Shown here piece after piece: positions 705 to 54,605 of a stretch of DNA of 64,000 nucleotides. Both the position numbers and the translations under genes were made by a program. The notes beneath the pieces are model-generated. The model was given only the letters and a program-made list of their open reading frames with translations. It was not told the DNA's origin and ran no database searches. The stretch is from Tubulanus polymorphus (Eukaryota; Animalia; Nemertea). The DNA lies in the NCBI RefSeq assembly GCF_964204645.1, contig NC_134029.1, positions 21,198,950-21,262,949 of the forward strand. The letters run 5' to 3'. Numbering within the stretch: position 1 is the stretch's first letter; every line of letters starts with the position of its first letter.

Positions 705-1778
705 ATGGAACCAAAAGAAGAAGATCTTTGGCCTCGACCTATCGAATTGATTCATGGCTATCCGTTCAGTGTAACAAACCATAGTAAAGAGCTCATTGAT
801 AAAATAATGAACTTAGAATATAGAGAGGATGACATCATTATAGCGACATATCCCAAAGCAGGTAATTGATCAAACTATCATGAATTGAAAACACTAGCGA
901 TTATAAACCTTTATTCTCGTTTGATAGAGATAATTCGTTGACTATTCTAGTATAGTTTGCAGCTTTGACGTGCTCAAAAACGAAATACGAGATTTTCAGA
1001 ACATGATGTTTTGTTTATGATATATTTCACAGGTACTACGATGACGCAAGAAATAACGTGGTTAGTGATGAATAACGGTGATCTCGAGGCCGCGAAACAG
1101 GACTATCTATCGGCACGGATGCCTTTCTTAGATTTTACACCACCGACTCGTAGCCTGATCTACGGTGATCTCCATACACCTCTAGAACTCTTCTTAAAGC
1201 AAAGTTCTCCTCGGATTTGCAAGATGCATTTACCCTGGAACCTAGGCCCGAGACAAGCTGTCGATAAATTTAAATCTAGATTAATTTACGTCATGAGAAA
1301 TCCTAAAGATATAGCCGTTTCATATTATCATTTCGCACAGGCTTTTGCTAGAACCCCTTTCATTGGCTCCTTTTCCAATTTTCTTAAAGTATTTTTAGCC
1401 CCAAATATGAGTTATGGGCCCATATTTGATCACTATTTGGGTTATTGGAAAGAGCGCCATAGAGAAAATATCCTCATTCTATATTACGAAGATTTGGTTC
1501 ATGATCACAGAGCACAAGTCGTCAAGATCGCTAAATTTCTCCAGAAAGATCTAACCGATGAAGTCATAGATAGAATCGTAGAAGCGACCAAATTCAAATC
1601 TATGAAAGCGAATCCTATGACTAATTATAAAGGTGATGGCTATGCAAAACCTAATGCTCCACCATTTATGCGCAAAGGTGAAACGGGTGATTGGAAGAAC
1701 CACTTTACTGTGGAAGAAGCAGAAACCTTTGATCGTCTGATCGCCGAGAAACTGACATCCGTCGGTATAAAATACTAA
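705..1778 (+). CDS. Cytosolic sulfotransferase (SULT family), copy 1; coding exons 705-861 and 1033-1778
   Basis: Splicing G|gt...ag|GT joins the 5'-PSB loop TYPKAGTT. Also present: catalytic KMHLP, 3'-PB motif RNPKDIAVSYYHF and C-terminal RKGETGDWKNHFT. Confidence 0.95.
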
Positions 1779-2432
1779 ATATTAGTCTCTAAATTCAATG
1801 TGTTGAAAAAAATAATTCAAATGCAATTCAAATTAGTTTTAACTTGGTCGGTCATCAGTGAGTTTTATTTCTCAAGGATTATCGATTAGTGTTTTGTTAT
1901 GAATAAAGATCTATAATATAAGAACAAAGCAAACAACAGTTTTTAATTGTTTTTTCTTCCTTCTTCAAGGAAAATGTCTTTGTTTCATCCGAAAGAACAA
2001 TGTACATGTACAATATATATCGTTGTTTGGTTTATTACACGAATAAATTAGTTACAATTTCTATAACGAATTTGCTTATGAGGATGCCGCAAGACGTGGG
2101 AATTTCACTACTATGAGAAAATATAGATTTTTAGAAGAATGTGGGCTTTAAAAGTCTAAAGAAATGGCGATAATTATTCGAAAATGGCGTTACATTCTAG
2201 AAAAAAATATATCCATCGATAGCTACGTAAAAGCCTTTTAGGCCATCAAACACAACTGTGACATACTATATGTTGTCGTAGCAGTACATTTACATATACG
2301 AAAGGCAGTACATAGTCAACCTGCACCCTGAATAAGAAAGGTAAGACAGACTTTCTGAGGATTAAATTTCACTATATATGCGAAAGTTCTGTTTTGGACA
2401 TTATTTCAGTTGTAAGAAAAAGGTAAATTGCA

Positions 2433-3542
2433 ATGGAACCGAAGGAACAGGATAAAAATTGGCATCGACCAATTGAATTTCGTGGCTATAAATTCGATAA
2501 GGACAGACACAGCATAAAGCTCCTTGAGGAAATAATGAGCTTAGAATTCAGGGAAGATGATGTCATCATTGCTACATATCCCAAAGCAGGTAAACATTTA
2601 AAGCCCAGTAAACCGCATTGAGGGACATCAGCATTTGACAGAAAATGAATTTATTGACTTTATTGATAAAACCTTGATAAGTAAGTCACGTTATTTGGCT
2701 TAATTCATGATATCAGTTACATCGTGGACGACAGCTTTGTAAACGACGATACTTTCAACGACTCTGGAGAAAAGAATGATTAATCTATCTTTACAGGGAC
2801 AACGATGACCCAAGAAATAACGTGGTTAGTGATGAATAACGGAGACGTAGAGGCCGCTAAACTGGAATATGTATCGGCACGTTTACCGTTCTTGGAATAT
2901 GCTCCATTAACTCGTAGTATGATCTACGGTAAAATTCACACGCCGCTAGAACTGTTCCTAAAGCAAAATTCTCCTCGAATGTGCAAGGTACATTTACCTT
3001 GGAATATAGGGCCGAGACGAGCTGTCGAAAAGTTCAATTCCAGATTAATATACGTCATGAGAAATCCTAAAGATGCAGTCGTTTCTACCTTTCATTTTGT
3101 GCAGGGATTTACAAAAAACCCGTTCACTGGTTCGTTTTCCGATTTTCTCAAAGTCTATTTAGCACCCGAAAAGGCATACGGGACTATATTTGATCATTAT
3201 TTGGGTTATTGGAAAGAGCGCCATAGAGAAAATATCCTTATTCTATATTACGAAGATTTGGTTCACGATCACAGAGCACAAGTAGTGAAGATCGCTGAAT
3301 TTCTCCAGAAAGATCTATCGGATGATGTCGTTGATAGAATCGTAGAAGCGACAAAATTCAAAGTGATGAAAGAGAATCCTATGACTAACTATGTTTATGA
3401 TGACTACGCAAAACCTAATGCCCCACCGTTTATGCGCAAAGGTGAAACGGGTGATTGGAAAAACCACTTTACACCCGAAGAAGCAGACATCTTTGATCGC
3501 CTAATCGCTGAGAAACTGACATCCGTCGGTATACAATGCTAA
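2433..3542 (+). CDS. Cytosolic sulfotransferase, copy 2; exons 2433-2589 and 2797-3542
   Basis: Same intron position and motifs as copy 1 (TYPKAGTT, KVHLP, RNPKD, RKGETGDWKNHFT). Confidence 0.95.
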
Positions 3543-4129
3543 GTATTAGTCTATAAATTCAATATATTAAACAAATGATCCAAGATATAATTTCAATCTC
3601 TTTTTAGTTTGTCGGTCATCAGTGAGTTTCATTTCTCAAGGATTATGTTATCGATTAGTGTTTTTGTAGTACAAATAAAGGTCATCTATAAGAACAGTTT
3701 TAATGCGAACAACAGTTTTTAATTGTTTTTCTTCTTTCTTCTTTTTCTTTTGTTGGTTGTTATGAGAATTCTGATGGACGTCGTAATTTCACTATTGAAA
3801 AGAGAGATACACGTATTCAGAAGTATATGTGGGCTTTAAAAGACAAAACCAACATATGAAATGGCGAATGATAGTTATTCGAAGATGGCGTTACAAACAT
3901 AAAAACATATGCACTGATTAAAACCTTTTACGTTATGAAACACGACTGTGACATAATACATGGTGGGAGCAGTACATTTACGAAAGTCACTTGACAGTAA
4001 ACAGTCGATCAGTATACTCTGAATAAGAAAGATAAGACTGACCTTCTGAGTATTGAATTGTATAAAAAGCTACGTATGTGAAAGTTCTGTTCTGGCCAAT
4101 TTACATGTTATAAAAAGAAGAAAATTGCA

Positions 4130-5204
4130 ATGGAACAAAAGGAACAGGATAAAAAATGGCATCGACCGATTGAATTTCATGGCTGTCAATTCAATAAGGG
4201 CATACACAATAAAGAGCTCCTTGAGGAAATAATGAGCTTAGAATTCAGGGAAGATGATGTCATTGTTGCCACGTACCCCAAAGCAGGTAAATATTTAGAT
4301 GAGCGGACCATGAGTGATTTCAGCATTTGGTAGAAAGTAACAATTGTATTGGTAAAACCTTAATCATTTATTCACGATGATGTGACTGAATTCATGAATT
4401 TATTTATTTTTCGATGTTGTCAACGGCTGTGGAGAAAATAATGATTGTCTCTTAACAGGAACAACGCTGACACAAGAAATAACGTGGTTAGTGATGAATA
4501 ACGGAGACGTAGAGGCCGCTAAACTGGAATATGTATCGGCACGTTTACCGTTCTTGGAGTATGCTCCACTAACTCGTAGTATGATCTACGGTAAAATTCA
4601 CACGCCGCTAGAACTGTTCCTAAAGCAAAATTCTCCTCGAATGTGCAAGGTACATTTACCATGGAATATAGGGCCAAGTAGAGCTGTCGATGAATTTAAT
4701 TCTAGATTGATATACGTCATGAGAAATCCTAAAGATACAGCTGTATCTAACTATCACTTTGCGCAAGGCTTTACTAAAAACCCGTTCACTGGCTCATTTT
4801 CCGATTTTCTCAAAGTCTATTTAGCACCCGAAATGGCATACGGGACTATTTTTGATCATTATTTGGGTTATTGGAATGAGCGCTATAGAGAAAATATCCT
4901 GATACTATATTACGAAGATTTGGTTCATGATCACAGAGCACAAGTTGTGAAGATCGCTGAATTTCTCCAGAAAGATCTATCAGATGAAGTCGTGGATAGA
5001 ATCGTCGCAGCAACCAAATTCAAAGTGATGAAAGAGAATCCTATGACTAACTATGTTTATGATGGCTTTGCTAGACCTAATGCCAAACCATTTATGCGTA
5101 AAGGTGAAACGGGTGATTGGAAAAACCACTTTACACCGGAAGAAGCAGACATCTTTGATCGTCTGATCGCCGAGAAACTGACATCTGTTGGTATAAAATA
5201 CTAG
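4130..5204 (+). CDS. Cytosolic sulfotransferase, copy 3; exons 4130-4286 and 4459-5204
   Basis: Same intron position and motifs; highly similar to copy 2. Confidence 0.95.
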
Positions 5205-17259: not shown

Positions 17260-39503
<22,244 letters not shown>

Positions 39504-40980: not shown

Positions 40981-42900
40981 GGCGGATCGAAATCCTCATT
41001 TCTTTTGTCACTCGCTACATTTTTCACACAATATTTAAAAAGAAAATTGGCTTCATAGCACGAAAGTGCTACAGCCATTTTTCATATATATGATATCTAT
41101 CTGTCATGTCATCCGGAGCACTTCATATTCACTGTGATGCAATTCACTATAATTTAATGCATACGCATCAATAGTAACACTATGCAGCGAATTTTGTCGT
41201 AGATAAAAGCCTAGGAAATATAAATATCAGCGATTAAAAGGTTAATGGTACTCAAACGCTCATATGGATTATTGAACATTAATTACCAGGTATTCAAAAC
41301 GGGCCGTTTACAGTCATATATACATTATATATACGCATATATACATTTAAATAGAATCATTATTTCTAAAATCCTCGACTGATAAAACACGAATAAAACT
41401 TCTGCTGATTTCTGAATATTTTCCTTTGTTCGGCTAAGTGCTGCATTGGAACTTAACAATGGCTTTTAACGTTTTTTTTTTGTTGGTATTTTCCGCAAAT
41501 CTGTATTGACTGTAAAAAAGACTAGTCCACAAAGTAACGAGATAGAACCTGGTTGTGAGTTCCACTGTAGTCAGTCACTGACTTCATTAGACCCCTGTAG
41601 ATATTCTTGGGATGTTTATAGAATATCTATGATGCATTTAGTTCAATGGAAAGGAATTGAAATTTGACTCTGTTGAATGCCATGATAGTCACATGCGTGG
41701 TAGGATAACATTTTTGGATTATCATATGCAAACGAATGACGGAACACCATAACTGTGTCAGTGTATTTATTAATAAGATTTACATCAGGTATGAATTAAA
41801 ACTATACGTACGTCGTGATCATCAATTCACATTAACCCGAACGAATCGAGGTGGATAATAACGTACATAATAGAACGATGTTGAAACGCTTCAATGAAAT
41901 CATACTTGTGACAGAAATCTCAGAATTCCGGAAATTTTCTGCATTAAAAAAACAGAAGTCTGGAAAATAGAAAATTTCTGCAGAAAAATATATTAACTCT
42001 TTAAGAGAGGGCGCTGTCGCAGAATTTCGGAATTTTCTGATTGATGTTCTTGGAGCCAAGTATTGATGATTCTGAGGCGGTGATTTTGTTGCCATTCACT
42101 ATCGCAATTTTGCGCGCACGTTGAATCCGCCATCTAACGATACAATAACCATGGTCTTTTAACAGTCTCACAGTTGCTTTCAATCCGTAGTCAACTTCAG
42201 TAATGATTCGAATTTTCACAAGGTCCCGCAGTTCGAATTAATTTTTTATGATTTCAAAATTTGCTCGTCGATCGATTTTTATAAGTTCTTGTCTTGCATC
42301 GTTATCGTTAACTAGCGTAATTTGAACCTTCTGAATATTTCAGTTTTTAGACGTGAAGTTAATCATATATACTTAATTCGACGAACTGAAAAGATATTCA
42401 CCAGCGCGCATACACGCGTCGATTCTGGAACCATCTGAACGGATGTTTGTAACACTGACTTAGGTTTGAATGTTCTCCGTGTTTGGTCTAAAGCTAGGAG
42501 AAGCAGGACAACATTACCTATAAATGCTGGTTTTTCGTAACAAGGCTTTCGGGTTACAACTTGTTTAGTTGCTCAGTTAATCATTAACAGAACTCAATGG
42601 GAACCGAATGGTAAATTTTTGAGAATAATGGCAAAACTATAGTGCCACGGGCATTGCCGCAAGAAGATTTGCTTCACGTTCGAGTCCGAGATGCAAAACG
42701 AATAGGGGTACATTTTTTCCCTTTTTCCTTTCGTGAGTTTCTCGTTTGTGCTGACTTCTATAATGACGAAACGTTACTTGATATGATGCCAAATTAGCGT
42801 TTACAAAAATACGCTGTATATTGGCATGAGTTGCGGTGATTAAATAGGTGAAAAATTGATTCAAAGAGATGCGGCAAATCGGAGTGACATTTCAGTGAGC

Positions 42901-43884
42901 ATGGACGACAGTTCCGCTGCACGGTTCCGGCAAAATGCAACCGGTATGATTGAACCGTTAAGGTACCCACCGACTTGGTTCCAACAATTGAAGATCGGTG
43001 TAGTTTATGTAGTCCTACCGGTGATTTGCTTCCTGGGAAGTATCGGGAATACTCTGGCTTTATGTGTACTCGTAGCCCCGTTCTATAGGACAACATCTAC
43101 CGGTGTTTACATGATCGCTTTGGAGGTTTTCGATCTTTATGTTGTGGCCGGTACTATTCCTGTCGCGTTCGTACGAATTGTCTTTCGTAACGAACTACTC
43201 AACACCCCGTTATGCATGGTGTATATATTTACAAATATTTCAGGTAATTGTTTATCGAATTTGACTCTCGCTTTGATGAGCATAGATCGAATGATTGTCG
43301 TCGTTCTCCCGTTGAAAGCGGCACAAATTTGCACCCCGAAAAAAGCGAAAATATGTCTGATTATACTATTCCTGTTTCAAATGACCAAAGTATCTGTGAA
43401 AACATATTTTACGGAAATGAAGACCGACGAAAAAGGTGCCAAATCGTGCGTGGCATTCGATCAGTTCGGGTACATTTCCATAGTTTTTATCAAGCAATTT
43501 CACGTATTACAAGAAGTGACATTACCGGTATCTGTGATAGTGATAACCAACATCATAATTAGTATAATAATGGTTAAAAAATCGAGGATCCGCACAAAAA
43601 TAATCGCACAGAATAATAATAATAGCGAAGATTCTGTTTTCCTCAAGATGATGCTCGCTATAACGAGTACATTTCTTATTTTGCATATACCACGCTTTAT
43701 CTATTTTACTATTCCGAGTTACTCCGATCCCTTGGTGCAAGCCGCGTTCTATTGGGTCGCCTTGTCATTCACTAACGCGAATTCGGCCGTCAATTTCTAT
43801 CTGTACTGTTTAAGTTCGGCGCGTTTTAAAACATCGGTTAAGTTGATTCTCAGAAAAATATATAATATTTTATTTTTCACTTAA
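42901..43884 (+). CDS. Intronless class A (rhodopsin-like) GPCR, peptide-receptor/chemoreceptor-like, copy 1
   Basis: Seven hydrophobic segments. Motifs: TM1 GSIGN, TM2 LEVFD, TM3 Cys and DRM, ECL2 Cys, TM7 NSAVNFYLY and helix 8 SARFK. N-terminal NAT sequon; first ATG at 42901. Confidence 0.92.
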   Translation: MDDSSAARFRQNATGMIEPLRYPPTWFQQLKIGVVYVVLPVICFLGSIGNTLALCVLVAPFYRTTSTGVYMIALEVFDLYVVAGTIPVAFVRIVFRNELLNTPLCMVYIFTNISGNCLSNLTLALMSIDRMIVVVLPLKAAQICTPKKAKICLIILFLFQMTKVSVKTYFTEMKTDEKGAKSCVAFDQFGYISIVFIKQFHVLQEVTLPVSVIVITNIIISIIMVKKSRIRTKIIAQNNNNSEDSVFLKMMLAITSTFLILHIPRFIYFTIPSYSDPLVQAAFYWVALSFTNANSAVNFYLYCLSSARFKTSVKLILRKIYNILFFT

Positions 43885-45096
43885 ATACAGCAATGGAATG
43901 AAAATATAAACGCAGAGTTTAAATCAATAAGTGATAATGCAGTCACAGAGTTCATAGGCTGTAACAACTCTGGACCAAGCAAAGTGGTGACTGTATCCAA
44001 ATATGCGAATGGTAATATTGATGGGATGGTTTAATGTTCTTTGATGCCATTTCTTTGCTTCTTCTAAAACACAATTTGAAGAAGCAATTTGATCATGAGC
44101 GAGGAAATAATTTTATTGAATTCGAAATTTTCATATTCGCTCTTGCAAATTACTACGTATATATACTTAATATATTCAAAACATATTGCAGCCATGTATG
44201 GAATTTGTCAGAGCAAAAGAAGAATTGTACGCGATAGCGTAAAACATACGTATATACATGCCAGACAATGGTATCTGCTAGAATGGAGGTAAACGAATGA
44301 ATCGCAAGACATTTACAAAAGTCCTGATTAGAGAAAATGAATAGACCTATATTGTCATTATCAAATGACGGTTATAACGCTATATGTCCATGAAAATAGA
44401 ATTAATTTTGGTGCAGTCGTTTCCTTGCTGTGGTATGGTTCAATTTTAGTTTCCACCATAGGTTTGATTAGTCCAGATGTGATTTATTTCTATTCTGCCG
44501 AACTATCTTGTGGAGCGTTTAAGATTCACGTTAGATCGCTTTTTCTCTTCTCAATTTATCGTGAATCGGTTTAAAAAGTTGGGTCTATTCGAGCAAATCA
44601 CAGATCAAATACAGATAATCATTTTAACGATGTTCAACAGACACTAAAATATTCGATGATCAAGAAAGGTAAATAATTTTGCATTAAGAACACCGATTCG
44701 AAAGGATTACCTGTTATTTTGAAATTTTCTCACATGTAATTAATTGATCTGATAAACATATACATGTTCCGTACATAAAATAACGGTACTATAGGTTTTT
44801 AACAACACAGAATCATTTCCATGATATAGTTTCTAGACTTATTTTCTCTGCATTTCTAACATCAATTGAACCTGATTCAAAACTCCAGGTTCGATTACTT
44901 CAAAGCTAAGTCCTCCATTATACTACTATGTAAGTTTCTCATATTTACTGCGTATGAATAATAAGTATAGATACGCTACTGGGCTCGAAATTCGATTCGC
45001 CGCATAATATTACCTCATTATAAATTCTACGCGAGAATGTATATATATTTACTACGAGAAAAATCGAAGTCGCGAGAGTCGAATTTCTAACTTAGC

Positions 45097-46062
45097 ATGA
45101 AAAACATTTCTACAGCATGCTTGCAACTGAACACGACTGGTTTGATCGACGCGGCAACATCATCGGAGTATCCGCTTTGGTTCCGGCAGCTGAAGATCGG
45201 TGTAGTTTATGTAGTCCTACCGGTGATTTGCTTCCTGGGAAGTATCGGGAATACTCTGGCTTTATGTGTACTCGTAGCCCCGTTCTATAGGACAACATCT
45301 ACCGGTGTTTACATGATCGCTTTGGAGGTTTTCGATCTTTATGTTGTGGCCGGTACTATTCCTGTCGCGTTCGTACGAATTGTCTTTCGTAACGAACTAC
45401 TCAACACCCCGTTATGCATGGTGTATATATTAACAAATATTTCAGGTAATTGTCTATCGAATTTGACTCTCGCTTTGATGAACATAGATCGAATGATTGT
45501 CGTCGTTTTCCCGTTGAAAGCGGCACAAATTTGCACGCCGAAAAAAGCGAAAATATGTCTGATCATTCTTCTCCTGTTTCAAATGACGAGGGTTTCGATG
45601 ATAGCATATTTCATTGAAATGGAAACCAACGAAAGATGCGCCAAATCGTGCGCAGTGTTAGCTCAATTTGGTGAAATACTCAGATTTGTAAACAAGCAAT
45701 TTCACGTATTACAAGAAGTGACATTACCGGTATCTGTGATCGTGATAACCAACATCATAATTACCGTTATACTGATTAAACAATCAAGGATCCGCACAAA
45801 AATCATTGCACAAAATAATAATAGCGAAGATTCTGTTTTCTTCAAAATGATGCTCTCTATAACGAGTACATTTCTTATTTTGCATATACCACGCTTTATC
45901 TATTTTACTATTCCGAGTTACTCCGATTCCTTGGTGCAAGCCGCGTTCTATTGGGTCGCCTTGTCATTCACTAACGCAAATTCGGCCGTCAATTTCTATC
46001 TGTACTGTTTAAGTTCGGCACGTTTTAAAAGATCGGTGGACCTAATTCTTAGAAATTCATAA
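45097..46062 (+). CDS. Intronless class A GPCR, copy 2 (recent paralogue)
   Basis: Same motifs; TM1-TM3 and TM6-TM7 are nearly identical to copy 1. Confidence 0.92.
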   Translation: MKNISTACLQLNTTGLIDAATSSEYPLWFRQLKIGVVYVVLPVICFLGSIGNTLALCVLVAPFYRTTSTGVYMIALEVFDLYVVAGTIPVAFVRIVFRNELLNTPLCMVYILTNISGNCLSNLTLALMNIDRMIVVVFPLKAAQICTPKKAKICLIILLLFQMTRVSMIAYFIEMETNERCAKSCAVLAQFGEILRFVNKQFHVLQEVTLPVSVIVITNIIITVILIKQSRIRTKIIAQNNNSEDSVFFKMMLSITSTFLILHIPRFIYFTIPSYSDSLVQAAFYWVALSFTNANSAVNFYLYCLSSARFKRSVDLILRNS

Positions 46063-46960
46063 GCGGTAACATATGTATTAAATTGAATCAGATTCATGGC
46101 TAAATGTGTTCTTGTTGACCAATCTAGGTACCGAATATTTGACACTGCAATAAAGCTTGGCCCTGAATGACAGAAGAAATAAACTGAAAATAAAAAAGAT
46201 TTTAGTTTTCTCACGCGTAAAAATACAAATTTAATAATCATTTCATATACACAAACATATTTTCATAATAAATGATATTATTTGTACATGGGATTCATTG
46301 GCACGAAAAGTAGTAAGATGGCGCAACAAAGCTCTACAAGGCAGGTAATGATATTCCGGTAAAATGGATGCGAAAGGAAGAACTTCGGAAAATCCTTTTA
46401 AAGGAAAATATATAGAATCCTATACTCGATGAAATCGAATGTCACATTTATAAGTCGTTAAAAACAATGTTGTATATGCTGGAATCAATGCTATATGTGG
46501 TACATTGAAATTTTCCGAATGAAATTGGATTATCGTCTCATCCAAATCGCATTAGTCTAGTAGTACGGATACCTCCTGGCTTTCAACCCGCAGGTGGCCT
46601 CAGGTTTCCCGGAGTGGGAATCTATACTTTTGTTGATAATCGGATACACAAACCTAACAATAACATTATACATTATTTAGCACCATAAATCACTAATAAC
46701 ATAAACCTGATCTTAATATACCACTAATATACAATATTTCTCTACTATACCAAACTCTCTTGGCGACTGCTTAACGGAGTTTTGGGGTCTTCTTCGATCA
46801 AGTCGATAGATGGCGTGTTGCCACTTTCTGGTGAGGCTAGTGGCGCTAACTGGGAAGTATTACTGCCGTAGCTTCGCAGCCCGTTTAGATCTTTTACCCC
46901 AATTTCCTCCCAATTATTCGATGGACTTCGGCTTCCATCATACACAACATTGTTCTTTTG

Positions 46961-49900
46961 TCAAGCGGTCGAGCTCCTCTTTCTCCATCTGCGCATACAG
47001 GGCGTAAATTCGCATATGAATAGTAATATGGCCAGAACGACACCACCAAGCAGGACGAAAAATACACCGGCAACATTCACTAATTTCAGTTCAGTAGTTT
47101 CGTCATCAGATGAAGAATCTTTGCTACATTTTGATGATCTCCACCATCTATAATAAAAAGACAACAAGAAAATAGATTATGAATCAGTGGAGAGCCTGAG
47201 GCGATGACAATGCCAACGCACACAACGCTCGGAAAGAGGAGACAGAAACTGTTTCCGAGCGTTTCGTGTGTCGTGTGCGTTGGGCTTAACTATCTGCCTT
47301 TATACTAGAGCATGACCAGTACTAACTTGTGTTCTAGTTCACCAAGTCTTCCAGAATCACTAAGGTTCAAGATAGCCATTGTAAGTTGCTCGCGGTATGG
47401 AGCTCCGACAGGTAAAGCGATACCAAATCCTTTAGTATTGTCGAATTCCGGACCGATCGCCATCAGTTTACAGTTCTGCGAAACTTCGTAATCGATTACA
47501 GTACTGTCCCAGAGAAAAGCGTAATTCCCCTCGAGGACCCGAGCTAAACCTGCCGATGAATTCAACACCATATCTTCTTTAATCGTATTCATGTGAACGT
47601 ACATTTTATTAAACTGTTCTATAGACGTATATTTGAGGAAGTTGAGGACGCCACTGTTCTCTACGGAGCCGTATCTGACAGTCGTCTGATAAGCGAGATC
47701 TGTAACAGACGATATGGGCGCTTGAATCTGACGGATGGTAAGAAATGCGGCCAAATTGGCCGTATACGACGACACGAGGATCAGCGCGAAAAACCACCAC
47801 GCGCTTGTTAAAATTCGTCCCGGTATCGTCATCGGAGTCGATTCGGTGCTGCCCCCTACAATCGCGCCAAATACGAACCAGAAACTCTCGTACCAATCGA
47901 AAAATACAGCCCCTTCATCGCGAACTGTGCGACATTTATTTTCAAAAATGTATTCGAGTACGGCGACTAGTACCACAGACAACATCACACAGAACCACAC
48001 CAACCCATGGAACGGTTTCAGAAACTGTAGATACGACATTTCCGGTGGGATTTTCTTCATGATGACCGATATTCCTCGAGTTTTGAACGGTTTAGTGAAA
48101 TCTATCGCTTGTTCGCGTTCAGCGTTGATACTAAGCGGAGCGACAGACATGGTAGCATTCTGAAATGATAAATGATTAAATACATGCTAAAAATCAAATG
48201 AAATAATTCCAAATTCGGTTCTCATACCCCGCTTAGTAGTTGTCTGACGATTCCGTTCCATTCGCCAAATTTGTTTTTCGCCCCATACTGGCCGTCCGGT
48301 ACTTCATATAACTCATAACTGAAACCCATATTGCGACTGATTTCTTCAATTAGATCAATGCAGTATCCTTTCCAGCGGCTGTTACCTTTCAATTCATTAA
48401 ACCGATGTCTTCTCATTACGAAGGGCGGTTCCTGAACAAAAGAAAAACCCACAAAAAAAGATGTAGTTTTTATTGTGTGTATGACCGAATTGATTCCAAT
48501 TTTCAAAATCATTATAAAGGCATTTGATCGAACCAATGGAAGATCATAGATCACTTTAATTTTAGAAATGCATTTCTCAGGACGACCAATTACACCGTCT
48601 TTGTCGTTGGACAATCTCATCAACCAGCTACTTCATGTCCTCGCCCCAATCTTGGCACTGGTATCTTGATACTTATCTTTATTTTCTTGATACTAATACT
48701 TATTTCACGGGTGTACTTATGAGGGATTTTATTCACGAGTGTTCAGGTCGCCCAAACCTTATCTTTCTTTAGTTCTCATCACGTTAATCCATTTACACGG
48801 ACTTCGGTGCGATTGCCTGCGAGATCACCGATTTACACACAACATCAACCCCTTCATGAATAAAACATGTTACCTGTATAATGACGACCTTGGCAACGCT
48901 TTTTCCTAATGTGGCTTCCGTCAGATCTGGGACTATATGCGTGAATTGAAGACGCTTCTCGAACATAGTGGCATTTGAGCACCAACGAGCACTCTGAAAT
49001 ATTTTTGAAAATATAGATTATACAAACAGCATCTTACTCAGCACACTCAGAATCTTACCTGATTAGAATATGATGCATAGATACGACGCGGCTTGACGTT
49101 TACTCACGTTCAGAATCGTGTCTTACCTGAAATGCTTTGGTTGACTCGAGATTCGTTATACCCAACGTGAAATTCACTCTTCTTCCCTGACTATCAAATT
49201 GAATATTTCCACCTTTGCCTATGTAATGATTCTGTAACGAAATAATGCGCTGAGATTGATAACAATCGTATACGACACGAAGAGTAAATGCAAATGCGAT
49301 AGACTCGCTGAAGCCGTTTTCATTAGGGTCGCTAACATCTTAGATAATAAAGACTATATAAGTGCCGCTACTATCATCCTGACGATCATGAGAAACCTGG
49401 CTAAACTAACCGTGGAAAGTTGATCGTTGACATCATTAGCGACCAGGTCCCCGTTCCAACCTATCATTGCCATACCAATACTAGCCAACATCGTCGATAT
49501 ATCAGAAAATATAACAGCTTTCAGATTGCTCGGGCGTTGGCCAGAAGCGATAGTGTCGAATAGGGTTACTTGAGAAACATTCGGTTTTATATGTTGGAAT
49601 TTGTCGTATCCGATGTTTTCAAATCCCTGGATAGAAATATTTCGTGATTATTCTAATAATTTCAATATCTTCAATCGTGTATTTTTTCATGTCGATGTCA
49701 ATCAATACTTACTGGATTCAACGTTATCCATCGATTATTTCGTCCCAAAATTGATAGATATCTGGCCTGAAAGATGTTAAAACGATTATCAACGTCGGTT
49801 TTATGCTCCACCGGTTGCGTGTGTTTAGATCGCGACCAGTTCCACTGGTAGCCAATCGTGTTAGAACGATATGTGGCGTATGGGCGATAGCCAAAACTCA

Positions 49901-52900
49901 GGGCGGATCCAAGGCGAGGGTGTAGGAAGTGCACATCCCCTAAAATATCTAGTTACCCAATGATTTTAAGGGGGATTGAAAAATATTGATACTAGAATAT
50001 CAACTGGTACTTAGAAATTCATAAGCTTGCTCTCTGTACTTCCAAAATGAAGTAATGTTTCCCGATGATCGGATGCCCTTTTCATCATATGCTCTATTTT
50101 GGGCTCCTCTCTGAATGAGACCCTAGATCCGCCACTGAAATCGAACGTTGAACTCCAAAGAATCAAAAAAAAGATTAAGAGATTGATACCTCTTTTAGAA
50201 TTATCTGTATGAGCGTCGGGTCAACGGCCAACACGTAATGATCGATATCGTGATCTGCTGCTGCGGTACCGAATGTTTGCCGTACAGTCAACACACTGAC
50301 ATTACCTCTTAGGCGCCATACATTCATCGATACCCACGATTTAAGCACAAACTGTTGACTGATTTCCGATCCTGAAAAAATACCAGTCATTCGTTCATTT
50401 CATCTTAAAGCAACCTAAAAGAAATCTGCTTATCAACCGCCCGGACAAAGTTTATATGAACCAGTTTCAGTGACAAGAAAATCTTGGTATTGATGCTTAT
50501 TCTTGGTCCAATTTCATAAACAGCGAAATACATAAATTTCTTCTAGATTTTATGTTTCTTAGCACTACGTTTTCCTGAAAATTCTATCATTTTATGATTA
50601 TGATATGATGGGTATTCTAACTATTAGGCATAGTTATTCAATTTATGGGTCATACGTAGTTGCACCAAGAATGTTCCATGCTGGATTGGTTTCCGGCAGG
50701 CATATCTTCCTTGCATCTTTTGTTGACTCGACTCGCAGTTACACCGGTAACGATGTCATAAAATCTAATAAATGTCTAGTTTTTGGTATGGTATCCATGG
50801 ATACAAATTACATTCAATCAGGCATCACATGTAGGGCATATTCACAGATTCCACAATAGGTAACCAGGGGCGAATTACTGCCCTCTGTCAATCAGTCAAA
50901 TCTACTAAAAAATCTAAGTTGGAACCAAATCATTTCTCACATAAATTTGAATTTACGAAAATTACGATATTCTATTTACGAAACGCTACAGAAATAACTC
51001 TTTTGAAGATATCAAAGATCTAGTGTTAACCATCTTAAGAAAACGGATAGATGTTTATAGCATATTTCAAAGGAGTAGACTTTTTATCATAATATTCAGC
51101 ATAATTTTTCTTGAGTGACCTTCAGGCTGTAGATATCAAACGCACCGATAAATTGGTATAGTCAATGGAACGGAATCTTTATGAGCTCTGGGTACCATAA
51201 ACGGAGAGACGAACTCTCGTAAATCAAGCCGTCTTACCGTCGATAAAGTGCTTAAGCACGCAGAAGGCTTTATTATCGATAGGTTCAGTGGCAAGGCAGG
51301 CAATCTACGAAATAAACTTTAATGTTTGATCAGGAGCAAAAATTCCATCAAAGATTAAGCATTTACAACGATTTTTATGATCTCGAAATGTAACATTATA
51401 ACTATTGAAGTGCTCGAGCTAAGTGAATCATCTAAGACTTTCGTCGAACGTAATAAAAAAGATGAAAGCAGTTTTTGTGTTTTAAAAATTACATACTAAA
51501 ACTAGTTACGTATATACGGTATAAAACATGATCAAAAGCATTGTGTAAACACTCATTTCCTAAATAAATTCACGGTAACTATCTGTAAGCTACAGAACGT
51601 AGAAAATAATGTGTTGCATTTTGCTTTTTATGTATTTGTGATGTAAATTCATAGCGAAATGAAGAATAGTTTTATAGTGAATTCGAAATTCGACGTTTGA
51701 ACAATAAGTTTGTTGAATTCAATTTTTTCCGCGAATATTTCTATAGACAAAGCCCGTTTCTACGTCATTTGGGATTTTGCGGTTGTTGAGTACACGCTGG
51801 GATATTGCTCGATTCAAGTCACTGCAGTGATTTATACAGATATAAACGGTGTAATAAGCCATAAACAAAAGGTCGGTAACCTTCATTAGCAAAATAACGA
51901 TCGTCGGCTACATCAAAATGAATTCCCTTATCTTCAGAAGGCTTATGCTCTATTCAAAAATATGGTTGAATGAAATCATTGCGAAGATTTATTGGTTCAT
52001 CTATCATAGAATGCTCCCCGATGAGGAATGGCTTAATGGAAATTATATCTTATTTAACAAAATTATGGAAATCACGTAGAAATAAATCAGTTCTTTTAAT
52101 CGTGTAAAGCGCAGCATTCTCTTCAATAAACATTTTATGCGTGTATTTTGTATATATTCCTGATTTTTTCATTTTCATTGGTGTTTTTTATGGGGGATTT
52201 TCTCGCAAAGGGATCCTCGTATGCCAGGGTTCGATTGCCTCCCACTTGAGCTCGGGTGGGAGGCAACCGAATCCTGGCTTGGGCCCCATGCTTGGAGTAC
52301 TCCGAGATCCTGGCAAGCGAGGATGGCAAAGGGGGATTAAAGTTGAACCGAATCTAGGTGTTTCTAACCCACTCGATTGAGAAGCGTAACATGAGTTCAC
52401 ACTCACCCAAGGTTTTGTCGTAAACCAACGCAAATCGCTGAATATCGTAAGCTTCGACCAAGTCGATCATAGCCTGGCCAAAATCTTCCGGTTGAGGTAA
52501 AAAACAGAACTGATACGCGCCCAAACATCTGGACAACGATATCGTCATGTACGGTATCTTCAAAGATTCAGTGACGATCAGAATAGTCGCATCTTCCGGT
52601 GCTATCACTAGAGCAACTTTCTGCGACTTCAGGATATTTTGGACTGAAATAGAAAATGTTATTGTAGTTCTGCAAACAAAAAATGTAAGGTTCATTAAAG
52701 CTCCATATTAGCTTAGACCTATAAAGACTATATCAGAGACTGCACAAGTAAGAACTTCGAACCGTTGTGGAATATTAAGGCCATTGAGCCAGTATAAATT
52801 GGTAACAAAGAAGAAAAAGAAATTCATTACTCGAGGTTCAATAAACTTTCGTGTTTGCATATCTTAACATGCGCCGACATTTTCACGACCGATTTTCTAT

Positions 52901-54605
52901 CGGACCGTTTAGATTAAGCCTTTTAATACGTCGTCTAAATTCAAAACAGGCATATCTTGATTTAGTGGTTTGACGAAATAGATGATAAGGGGACATAGAA
53001 ATAATGCGCCTCAATTTAAAACCTATCAAAACACAATGGCTCGAATAACGGAATTTAACGTATCGCTAAACAGAATAACGAATATCTTTTTTGATCAAAT
53101 TGTCCATTCGAATCAACGGACACTGATACGATGACGTCATCACCAGGAATACCCCGAACATGGAGATCAAGTAACTGTCATGATTTTACCGTGAAAGCTA
53201 TGAAATTTATAATCATCATTAAGCAACATTATTGATGAACATGTACACATACCCTCTGTCAGTCTCTGATATTCTTTCGATTTATCAGTAGCTGGATCGG
53301 GTAATTCTATATACGTGATAGTAATGGCACCACTTTCCCGAGTTTCGGTACGTGCCGTCTCCTTATCACTGGCCAATACACCTAGAAAATTAACGTAGAC
53401 GATTTATTTTGGTAATCTTTCATCTTGTTATGTCATTCAATCGTTCTTTCGGGGGTCCGGGTTGAGGATTTTTGATGCGGAAAACCATCGCAGTCGCAAT
53501 CGAATGTGCCGTACTTGGTTGGATTTCGAAAGCGACCTTGTCCTGTTTCACACTGTCACTGTCTGATTGATATTAACTATATCCTTGTTTATGGTCATTT
53601 AGAGACGTTTCACTGGATATGCAATAGGCGGTGGGATTTAATTACTTAGTCAGTGGTGGTTTTTTATGATTATGACCAGACTGTGCTATTATATTGTGCG
53701 TATCAGCATAGCAAAAGCATTGACGCATTGACTGTGGCCGCGATCGAGCTCGTTGATCTTATGATAACCACCACTAGAGCAGCATTATGTCGAAAGAAAC
53801 ATGGCAACTCAAATAGCTTTATTTCTCAAAAAGAGGGTCTTCTTCGTGTCTGACTGAAAAAAATGAATATATAAGACATCGATGCATATGTCTGACAAAA
53901 GGGAGGATACGGATCGGTTAATTGAGACAGAAAATATGGAAGTTCCAGTTTCAATCGCTGAAGCTCTACTACGTGTACAGCCATTTTTTACATTCATTGG
54001 GCTTATACTACTCCTCGGCCTTCAAGGCTGAAATTCTCTTAATTTCCCGGTAGTGCTGATAATTAAACAATGATAGATTACAAAAGGTCGTTGGAGTTCC
54101 AATTTTCGCTTGGTGATGGTATCAAGCATTTTCATCAAGTCATCAAGGTCACTGGTCATATCGCGCACAAATGGTATATTTGTGATGTGATATGAATAAC
54201 AAGTATGGACATTATCTGCCCAGGGGGCGGATTGCCAATAGCATACAATTAATCTACATACATCTTCAACTTCACTAACGATTTGCGCTTTGAATGTCAA
54301 TGCAGCATTTACTGTCCTAGAAATTATCTCCAAAAGATGTACATTCTACGACAGAAAATCGTTCATATTCACCATCGCTGCCGGCTCAGACAAAATGTAA
54401 TTTTTCCCATTTAACAAATTGCTTTCAACTATTTCCAATAATTCATATTTCAATATGGTATGTATCTATTATCATTCATCATCTTCACGACTGAATGGAA
54501 AAAATGTTTCATTTACGTACCAACTTTCACTCCAGGAGCTACAGCCTCTTGCACCAGTACCAGTACCCATAAAAACACCGTCACTACGAGGTGTGCACGC
54601 TTCAT
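46961..54605 (-). CDS. Ionotropic glutamate receptor-family subunit B (non-NMDA, AKDF/delta-like), about 11 coding exons; first stop TGA 46963-46961, possible readthrough to 46745
   Basis: Signal-peptide exon 54605-54521 (MKRAHLVVTVFLWVLVLVQEAVAPGVKVG). Further exons: ~53381-53253, ~52643-52407, ~50371-50190, ~49766-49711, ~49627-49307, ~49231-49128, ~48992-48874, ~48431-48227 (EPPFV...KGYCIDLIEEI...WNGIVRQL), ~48159-47327 (APLSINAEREQAIDFTKPF, SYTANLAAFLT, YAFLWD) and ~47148-46961 (M4 NVAGVFFVL). Confidence 0.93.
47212..47288. mobile_element. Short MITE of the 34188 family in the last intron of iGluR-B
   Basis: GCCAACGCACACAAC...GTCGTGTGCGTTGGGCTTA. Confidence 0.7.
49899..50137. mobile_element. 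hAT-like MITE
   Basis: Termini CAGGGCGGATCC...GATCCGCCACTG; no clear target-site duplication. Confidence 0.55.
52213..52324. mobile_element. GC-rich palindromic MITE-like element
   Basis: Outer inverted repeat ATCCTCGTATGCCAGG/CCTGGCAAGCGAGGAT and inner 22-bp stem CCAGGGTTCGATTGCCTCCCAC/GTGGGAGGCAACCGAATCCTGG. Confidence 0.65.

Follow-up and report, generated by a model that had tools for sequence, protein, structure and literature searches.

A candidate leaky UGA stop codon ahead of a PDZ-ligand-type end in a GluR8-type glutamate receptor of the nemertean Tubulanus polymorphus

Among 52 species surveyed, stop-codon readthrough was abundant solely in Pancrustacea, according to the available text of that survey (PMC5100048), and the rows of its species table (Table S1), as far as the table is accessible, include no nemertean, mollusc or annelid. 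The conserved readthrough genes of Drosophila and Anopheles, as presented in the available sections of the same study, have a TGA followed by C and a coding-like second frame, and for these genes splicing, a downstream ATG and selenocysteine were tested and not favoured (PMC5100048). The gene described here, an ionotropic glutamate receptor gene of Tubulanus polymorphus that we call iGluR-B, resembles them in each of these points; in contrast, their stop is conserved over many genomes, while that of iGluR-B is known from alleles of one species. In the receptor family itself, Aplysia GluR8 (P0012 and its clade) stands among the AMPA-type subunits in Table 1 of PMC5225553, in the part of that paper available to us. 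With abundant readthrough held to be pancrustacean, and with the accessible rows of the species table containing no lophotrochozoan, iGluR-B provides a concrete and cheap test case. We propose that a fraction of the ribosomes translating iGluR-B may read through its UGA, producing a subunit that would be 72 residues longer and end in E-S-L-V. Judging from the sequence, we give this reading a slightly better than even chance; this and the other likelihoods expressed below are our judgements and not computed posteriors.

What kind of receptor does this gene encode? The iGluR-B coding region extends over 46964..54605 on the minus strand of the window, the whole 64,000-nucleotide stretch of DNA that was analysed, and consists of 11 exons encoding 783 amino acids, with all ten introns bounded by GT..AG. 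Its large upstream exon matches, with 100% identity, the public Tubulanus polymorphus model “glutamate receptor 1-like” (783 residues, P0001), which terminates at the TGA at 46963-46961 and forms a cluster of one member without an isoform. In a quick IQ-TREE phylogeny of 30 chosen rows, with support by SH-aLRT and without bootstrap, iGluR-B groups with a Lineus protein (SH-aLRT 97), and the two fall inside the Aplysia GluR8 clade (SH-aLRT 99). By its placement in this tree, iGluR-B is the Tubulanus polymorphus orthologue of Aplysia GluR8, a lophotrochozoan GluR8-type receptor. Protein searches returned no closer orthologue protein, none exceeding 62%.

The iGluR-B branch is long (0.79), and in the ligand-binding/channel exon (47327-48159, minus strand) 10 of the 19 upstream SNPs listed are residue-changing, which is unusually many. 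The many residue-changing alleles and the long branch together suggest that the gene may be under relaxed or diversifying selection. The pore loop (47800-47870, minus strand) reads I-V-G-G-S, as compared to I-A-Q-G-S in the Lineus orthologue; the Gly apparently lies at the Q/R site and could presumably alter ion selectivity. A 37-nt piece of the large exon (48081-48117) is also present, with 3 differences, in contigs of another locus, which is probably an iGluR paralogue, and a short repeated element in the last intron (47250-47287) is covered by many reads and contigs of other loci.

Elsewhere, the window contains a second, distant iGluR gene (17263-30280, minus strand), whose last exon ends in H-S-T-W-V, followed by TAA CAA TAA; this end is reached via an intron after M4 (17457-17377). 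Three tandem frames on the plus strand (969-5201), which from their motifs we take to be sulfotransferase-like, long dinucleotide and trinucleotide microsatellites (35150-35440 and 38540-38890), and two near-identical single-exon GPCR-like frames on the plus strand (42844-43881 and 45091-46059) are also present. The second of these frames ends some 150 nt away from where the iGluR-B transcript, which runs on the opposite strand, apparently has its 3′ terminus.

Is the first stop real, and is it retained in the spliced transcript? The M4 exon (47147-46964, minus strand) closes with R-S-S-T-A, after which come TGA and C (Table 1). We compared the locus with the sequences of six of the ten listed runs, among them X1, X2, X5, X6 and X7. 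The X1 contig represents an independent haplotype with 13 differences over 47153-46300, all 13 of them listed, and its TGA is unchanged. The X2 contig, of 3564 nt, skips the introns 47148-47326 and 48160-48227, and because two introns are skipped, we take it to be spliced RNA, although it is not recorded as RNA. This contig is unbroken across 47147-46300, including the TGA, and continues past 46300; over a narrower stretch, its ten differences, all ten listed, leave the TGA untouched. Moreover, about 20 raw reads of X5 cover the TGA without any listed variant, in a listing that omits variants found in fewer than three reads. The TGA is a genuine stop, carried in the spliced transcript of iGluR-B.

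The preliminary description of this DNA had named an assembly error or nonsense allele, and a splice bypassing the TGA, as findings that would speak against readthrough. Both were checked: an assembly error is refuted by the same TGA in X1, X2 and the X5 reads, and a major bypass is refuted by the spliced X2 contig, in which none occurs. Since contigs drop rare splice forms, such forms may still exist. Major editing is refuted by the unchanged 46961-46963 in X1, X2 and X5, while low-level editing is invisible to a contig.

The short end that had been described, RRWRKRSSTA, is present with its TGA; however, this tail is specific to the allele, as another allele has a 27-nt in-frame longer form near 46974-46975, with nine extra codons upstream of the same last residues and TGA. 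The basic stretch near the short end, whose RxR motif had been put forward as a putative ER-retention signal, would reside in both the short and long forms. Assuming no further indels, the spliced contig stops some 20 nt past the ATTAAA hexamer, although a contig end is not proof of an RNA end.

Table 1. Features around the first stop codon of iGluR-B, with positions in the window
Feature	Position	Strand	Basis
Last coding exon: M4 helix and 14-residue tail	46964..47147	-	sequence
First stop TGA; G at -7, C at -4, C at +4, A at +5, G at +9	46961..46963	-	sequence
Second open frame, 71 codons, without in-frame ATG, rich in Ser/Asn/Pro/Glu, four S/T-P sites	46748..46960	-	sequence
Small hairpin of the preliminary description, ordinary stability, one polymorphic arm	46920..46939	-	sequence, folding
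Block conserved in a divergent relative, 22/24 letters, codons of L-A-P-L-A-S-P-E-S, in frame with M4	46825..46848	-	X6/X7 contig
E-S-L-V end, class I PDZ-ligand pattern	46748..46759	-	sequence
Double stop TAG TAG	46742..46747	-	sequence
ATTAAA, sole polyadenylation-type hexamer 3′ of the stop	46230..46235	-	sequence

Can splicing remove the TGA? Splice sites were scored with weights from the 11 introns of the two iGluR genes of the window, and the acceptors were scored leave-one-out. None of the 19 AG sites within the extension scores above 0.7, as compared to 4.3-10.2 for the 11 true acceptors. The sole GT donor after M4, at 46998, scores 3.2 (true-donor range, 2.6-9.8), and the four in-frame acceptors for it score -3.7 or lower. 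The earlier assertion that no plausible intron removes the TGA holds for the acceptors, but is weakened by this one fair donor. The extension contains no Met from which a downstream start could open the second frame. No SECIS family of Rfam matches within 46100-47200 at E values up to 1; two sub-threshold Rfam matches (E 0.43 and 0.72) were taken as chance. Splicing, a downstream ATG and selenocysteine do not explain the extension, leaving room for rare splice forms.

The second frame was confirmed on the minus strand: 71 open codons after the TGA lead to S-R-Q-E-S-L-V and then to TAG TAG. The coding-like composition claimed for it, against an AT-rich 3′ flank, is also borne out, with a GC fraction of 0.469 in the extension and 0.355 in the next 442 nt. 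Stop-to-stop segments of at least 71 codons make up 60 of 4333 (1.4%) in the non-coding, unmasked DNA of the window. Over all six frames of the same DNA, 214 of 5559 segments (3.9%) end in S/T-x-V/L/I, and 19 of the 5559 (0.34%) have E/D in front of this motif. In a small Markov model, trained on 4.7 kb of coding DNA, the coding score of the extension is +1.0 in frame, versus -5.6 and -8.0 in the other frames; control open stretches score as high in 8 of 189 cases, while the frame advantage is ordinary, being matched in 37 of the 189 controls. As a package, the open frame, the end motif and the composition exceed chance. A class I PDZ ligand is a C-terminal S/T-x-hydrophobic residue sequence; E-S-L-V fits this pattern, and the long form is thus predicted to bind a PDZ domain.

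Allelic variation within the extension consists of a 3-nt in-frame difference, giving one additional codon at 46858, and seven SNPs, five residue-changing and two silent, as neutral drift would give. In the first frame, 14 of the 28 SNPs listed are residue-changing, and the comparison with the extension (Fisher p 0.41) gives no signal of constraint.

Does the TGA lie in a leaky context? In a fly study, the top UGA readthrough stops are enriched in G at -7, C at -4, C at +4, A at +5 and G at +9, according to its available text (PMC13278127). All five letters are present at the iGluR-B TGA, which is the only one of the 2808 TGA triplets in the window with the complete set; this match, made with fly letters in another phylum, was found after the fact. 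The leaky-type arrangement of TGA followed by C is present, while the CA(A/G)N(U/C/G)A motif after the stop is not: positions +4 to +7 fit, and +8 is A and +9 is G. The preliminary description had drawn on readthrough in insects; since the animal is a nemertean, this argument is not directly transferable.

The same description had offered a hairpin (GATGGA/TCCATC) in support of readthrough. The hairpin is present, with arms at 46939-46934 and 46925-46920, 22 nt behind the stop, but in context its stability is not above chance (z -0.50 for 64 nt and -0.79 for the whole extension); a z of -2.54 is reached solely when it is cut out to 31 nt. In addition, the SNP at 46921 breaks one arm in X1, X2 and 4 of 16 X5 reads. 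The hairpin is probably not a readthrough signal. No stable RNA structure was found in four windows beginning at the stop, where z ranges from 0.25 to -1.04 against shuffles; the linear sequence around the stop is the more informative feature.

How is the extension represented in relatives? X6 and X7 carry an identical 868-nt contig, which we counted once. In this contig, 57 of 68 letters agree with M4 and 22 of 24 with the block at 46825-46848, the latter with a chance expectation of about 6e-6. The spacing between M4 and the block, the interval in which the TGA is located, is 224 letters in the contig and 191 here; the difference of 33 is a multiple of three, and therefore the frame is kept between the two. 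Past the block, 30 letters of the contig are open solely in the frame of the extension, and the nine residues visible behind the block are unlike the Tubulanus tail. An extension frameshifted and unconserved in relatives, which had been named as a finding against readthrough, is not what one 24-nt block shows: it is kept, and in frame. We take the contig to be probably the orthologous gene of a related species filed under one label with the other runs. A close paralogue as its source is less likely, since searches turned up no such gene.

We also examined the tails of homologues. From the top 59 matches we set aside ten longer than 1000 residues and another four that lacked an M4 match; the 45 homologues left include isoforms and near-duplicates and are not independent, and 16 of these 45 end in E/D-S/T-x-V/L/I/M after M4. 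The 14-residue tail of the short form is the third shortest among them, whereas the 86-residue tail of the long form would exceed them all (maximum 60). The close paralogues end in HETTL and KESSI. The body of the extension matches none of the homologue tails; similarity to the best, that of Lineus, was rejected (p 0.037, uncorrected among 16). A search of the extension against 1.84 billion representatives yielded no iGluR-like match, and its two top non-self matches are compositional, in unrelated-looking long proteins. A metagenome scan gave 18 loci, without the sought Lineus contig, and the closest loci apparently have an intron after M4 and are uninformative about the stop.

Could the second frame be a remnant? 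A fairly recent, fixed nonsense change may have cut an ancestral long tail. In that case the short subunit alone would matter, any leakage would be a by-product and the 71 codons would be a relic still awaiting decay. We regard this as unlikely, although it carries some weight. It accounts equally well for the coding-like composition, the family-type end and the in-frame block, and the SNP pattern, with five of seven residue-changing, is neutral-looking. The gene is fast-evolving, and with its long branch and many residue-changing alleles, the truncation could have drifted. Seven neutral SNPs would also miss creating a stop with a probability of 0.75. Furthermore, Jungreis 2016, in its available text, leaves out stops found solely in close relatives, since these could be recent nonsense changes (PMC5100048). 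However, the TGA is present on every allele seen (window, X1/X2 and X5), and these alleles are about 2-3% apart, so the stop is not brand new; because frame and motif decay, a relic requires a stop older than this divergence but not much older. In simulated neutral decay, with assumed indel rates, frame and motif are both intact in 56-68% at 0.02 changes per site, in 25-68% over 0.02-0.05, in 7-18% at 0.1 and in 4% or less at 0.2, which leaves a narrow age window. Moreover, a nonsense change striking at random would not be expected to fall in a readthrough-type context, and the sole indel seen in the extension is frame-keeping.

The other explanations are considerably less probable. A minor splice form, in which the donor at 46998 is joined to an acceptor in the extension and E-S-L-V closes a normal alternative last exon, like that of molluscs, whose genes have an intron behind M4, is improbable in our estimation. 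The score of this donor is within the true range, homologous loci and exon-sized matches suggest an intron after M4, and rare forms are lost from contigs; the conserved block also starts precisely at the TAG at 46848-46846, a candidate acceptor in frame for this donor, which keeps the explanation alive. Nevertheless, this acceptor scores -3.7 and the other in-frame acceptors score lower, the would-be intron has 46% GC as compared to 25-44%, X2 contains no such junction and the public model cluster has its one member and no isoform. The join would also cost the receptor the basic residues found behind M4 in homologues. An ordinary 3′ UTR, with the open frame and E-S-L-V arising by chance and the conserved 24-mer serving as an RNA element (a protein or microRNA site), has a similarly small chance of being correct: open frames this long follow 1.4% of stops, an in-frame offset has a one-in-three chance, the SNPs look neutral and a single short block aligns, but the open frame, the E-S-x-V end (0.34%), the raised GC and the coding score would have to coincide, together with two frame-keeping length differences and the open frame of the relative. 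Finally, it is highly improbable that the UGA is made sense by A-to-I editing or selenocysteine insertion, or that it is an assembly error. Editing could convert a UGA into a codon for Trp, and at a low level it would not appear in a contig; against this stand the unchanged stop letters in all three runs and the lack of a SECIS family match in the searched region.

Readthrough is therefore the best single reading, as the preliminary description had proposed: the stop is real and the frame is open, while the hairpin is unsupported and readthrough itself stays a candidate. How might it operate? Most ribosomes would likely stop at the UGA and make the short subunit, whereas in the remainder a near-cognate tRNA would insert an amino acid. 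Near-cognate insertion at UGA gives Trp, Cys or Arg. Readthrough would be driven by the letters around the stop, and not by the hairpin, and by analogy with flies and Platynereis it may be higher in neurons. A PDZ scaffold could then anchor the long form, and the S/T-P sites in the extension may be phosphorylated. As for its origin, we infer that the stop was gained within an older coding tail and was kept leaky, rather than that a new tail arose from 3′ UTR. The broader proposal, that a leaky UGA before an ancestral PDZ-anchoring end is shared throughout Tubulanus and that readthrough, probably neuronal, sets the anchored share of subunits, is possible but rather doubtful.

If readthrough occurs, the public annotation, with its 783-residue protein, covers one of two forms and lacks the one that bears the anchoring motif. 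The broader proposal, if right, would also hint that neural genes undergo readthrough of the insect kind in Lophotrochozoa as well, a group missing from the accessible species rows of the main survey. If readthrough does not occur, iGluR-B offers a clear-cut case of a receptor tail that was truncated recently.

How does iGluR-B compare with the known systems? A literature search, in which few subscription papers were covered, found nothing on readthrough in iGluR-B or in nemerteans. In the fly genes beat-IIIb and CG42404, according to the available text of the report, a pre-existing C-terminus was made readthrough-dependent, and the tail is polar and of the disorder type (bioRxiv 10.64898/2026.07.13.738141); the same would apply to iGluR-B. 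The two fly genes have ribosome-profiling support, whereas for iGluR-B a continuous ancestral frame is deduced from a single block together with the end motif. Of the 87 fly neuronal readthrough cases in the same source, 2 arose by a stop gained inside an older coding sequence. The Drosophila sechellia “pseudo-pseudogene” Ir75a, as described in the available part of PMC7244557, belongs to the iGluR superfamily, and its fixed in-frame stop is read through in neurons; the stop of Ir75a would destroy the receptor, while that of iGluR-B lies after M4, and both forms would keep the whole channel and be distinguished by their tails alone. Within Lophotrochozoa, antibody staining of the Platynereis FVa/EFLGa neuropeptide precursor suggests neuron-restricted readthrough, according to the accessible text of PMC3890597, although this is a secreted precursor of another gene family and iGluR-B is a channel. 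Aplysia GluR8 and its molluscan orthologues belong to the same clade as iGluR-B, and many of them end in E/D-S-F/L-L/I/M. Their end is reached by ordinary translation through tails of about 20-40 residues, whereas the first frame of iGluR-B stops before any such motif. If our reading is correct, readthrough would switch the PDZ end of iGluR-B on and off, as splicing appears to do in the molluscan orthologues.
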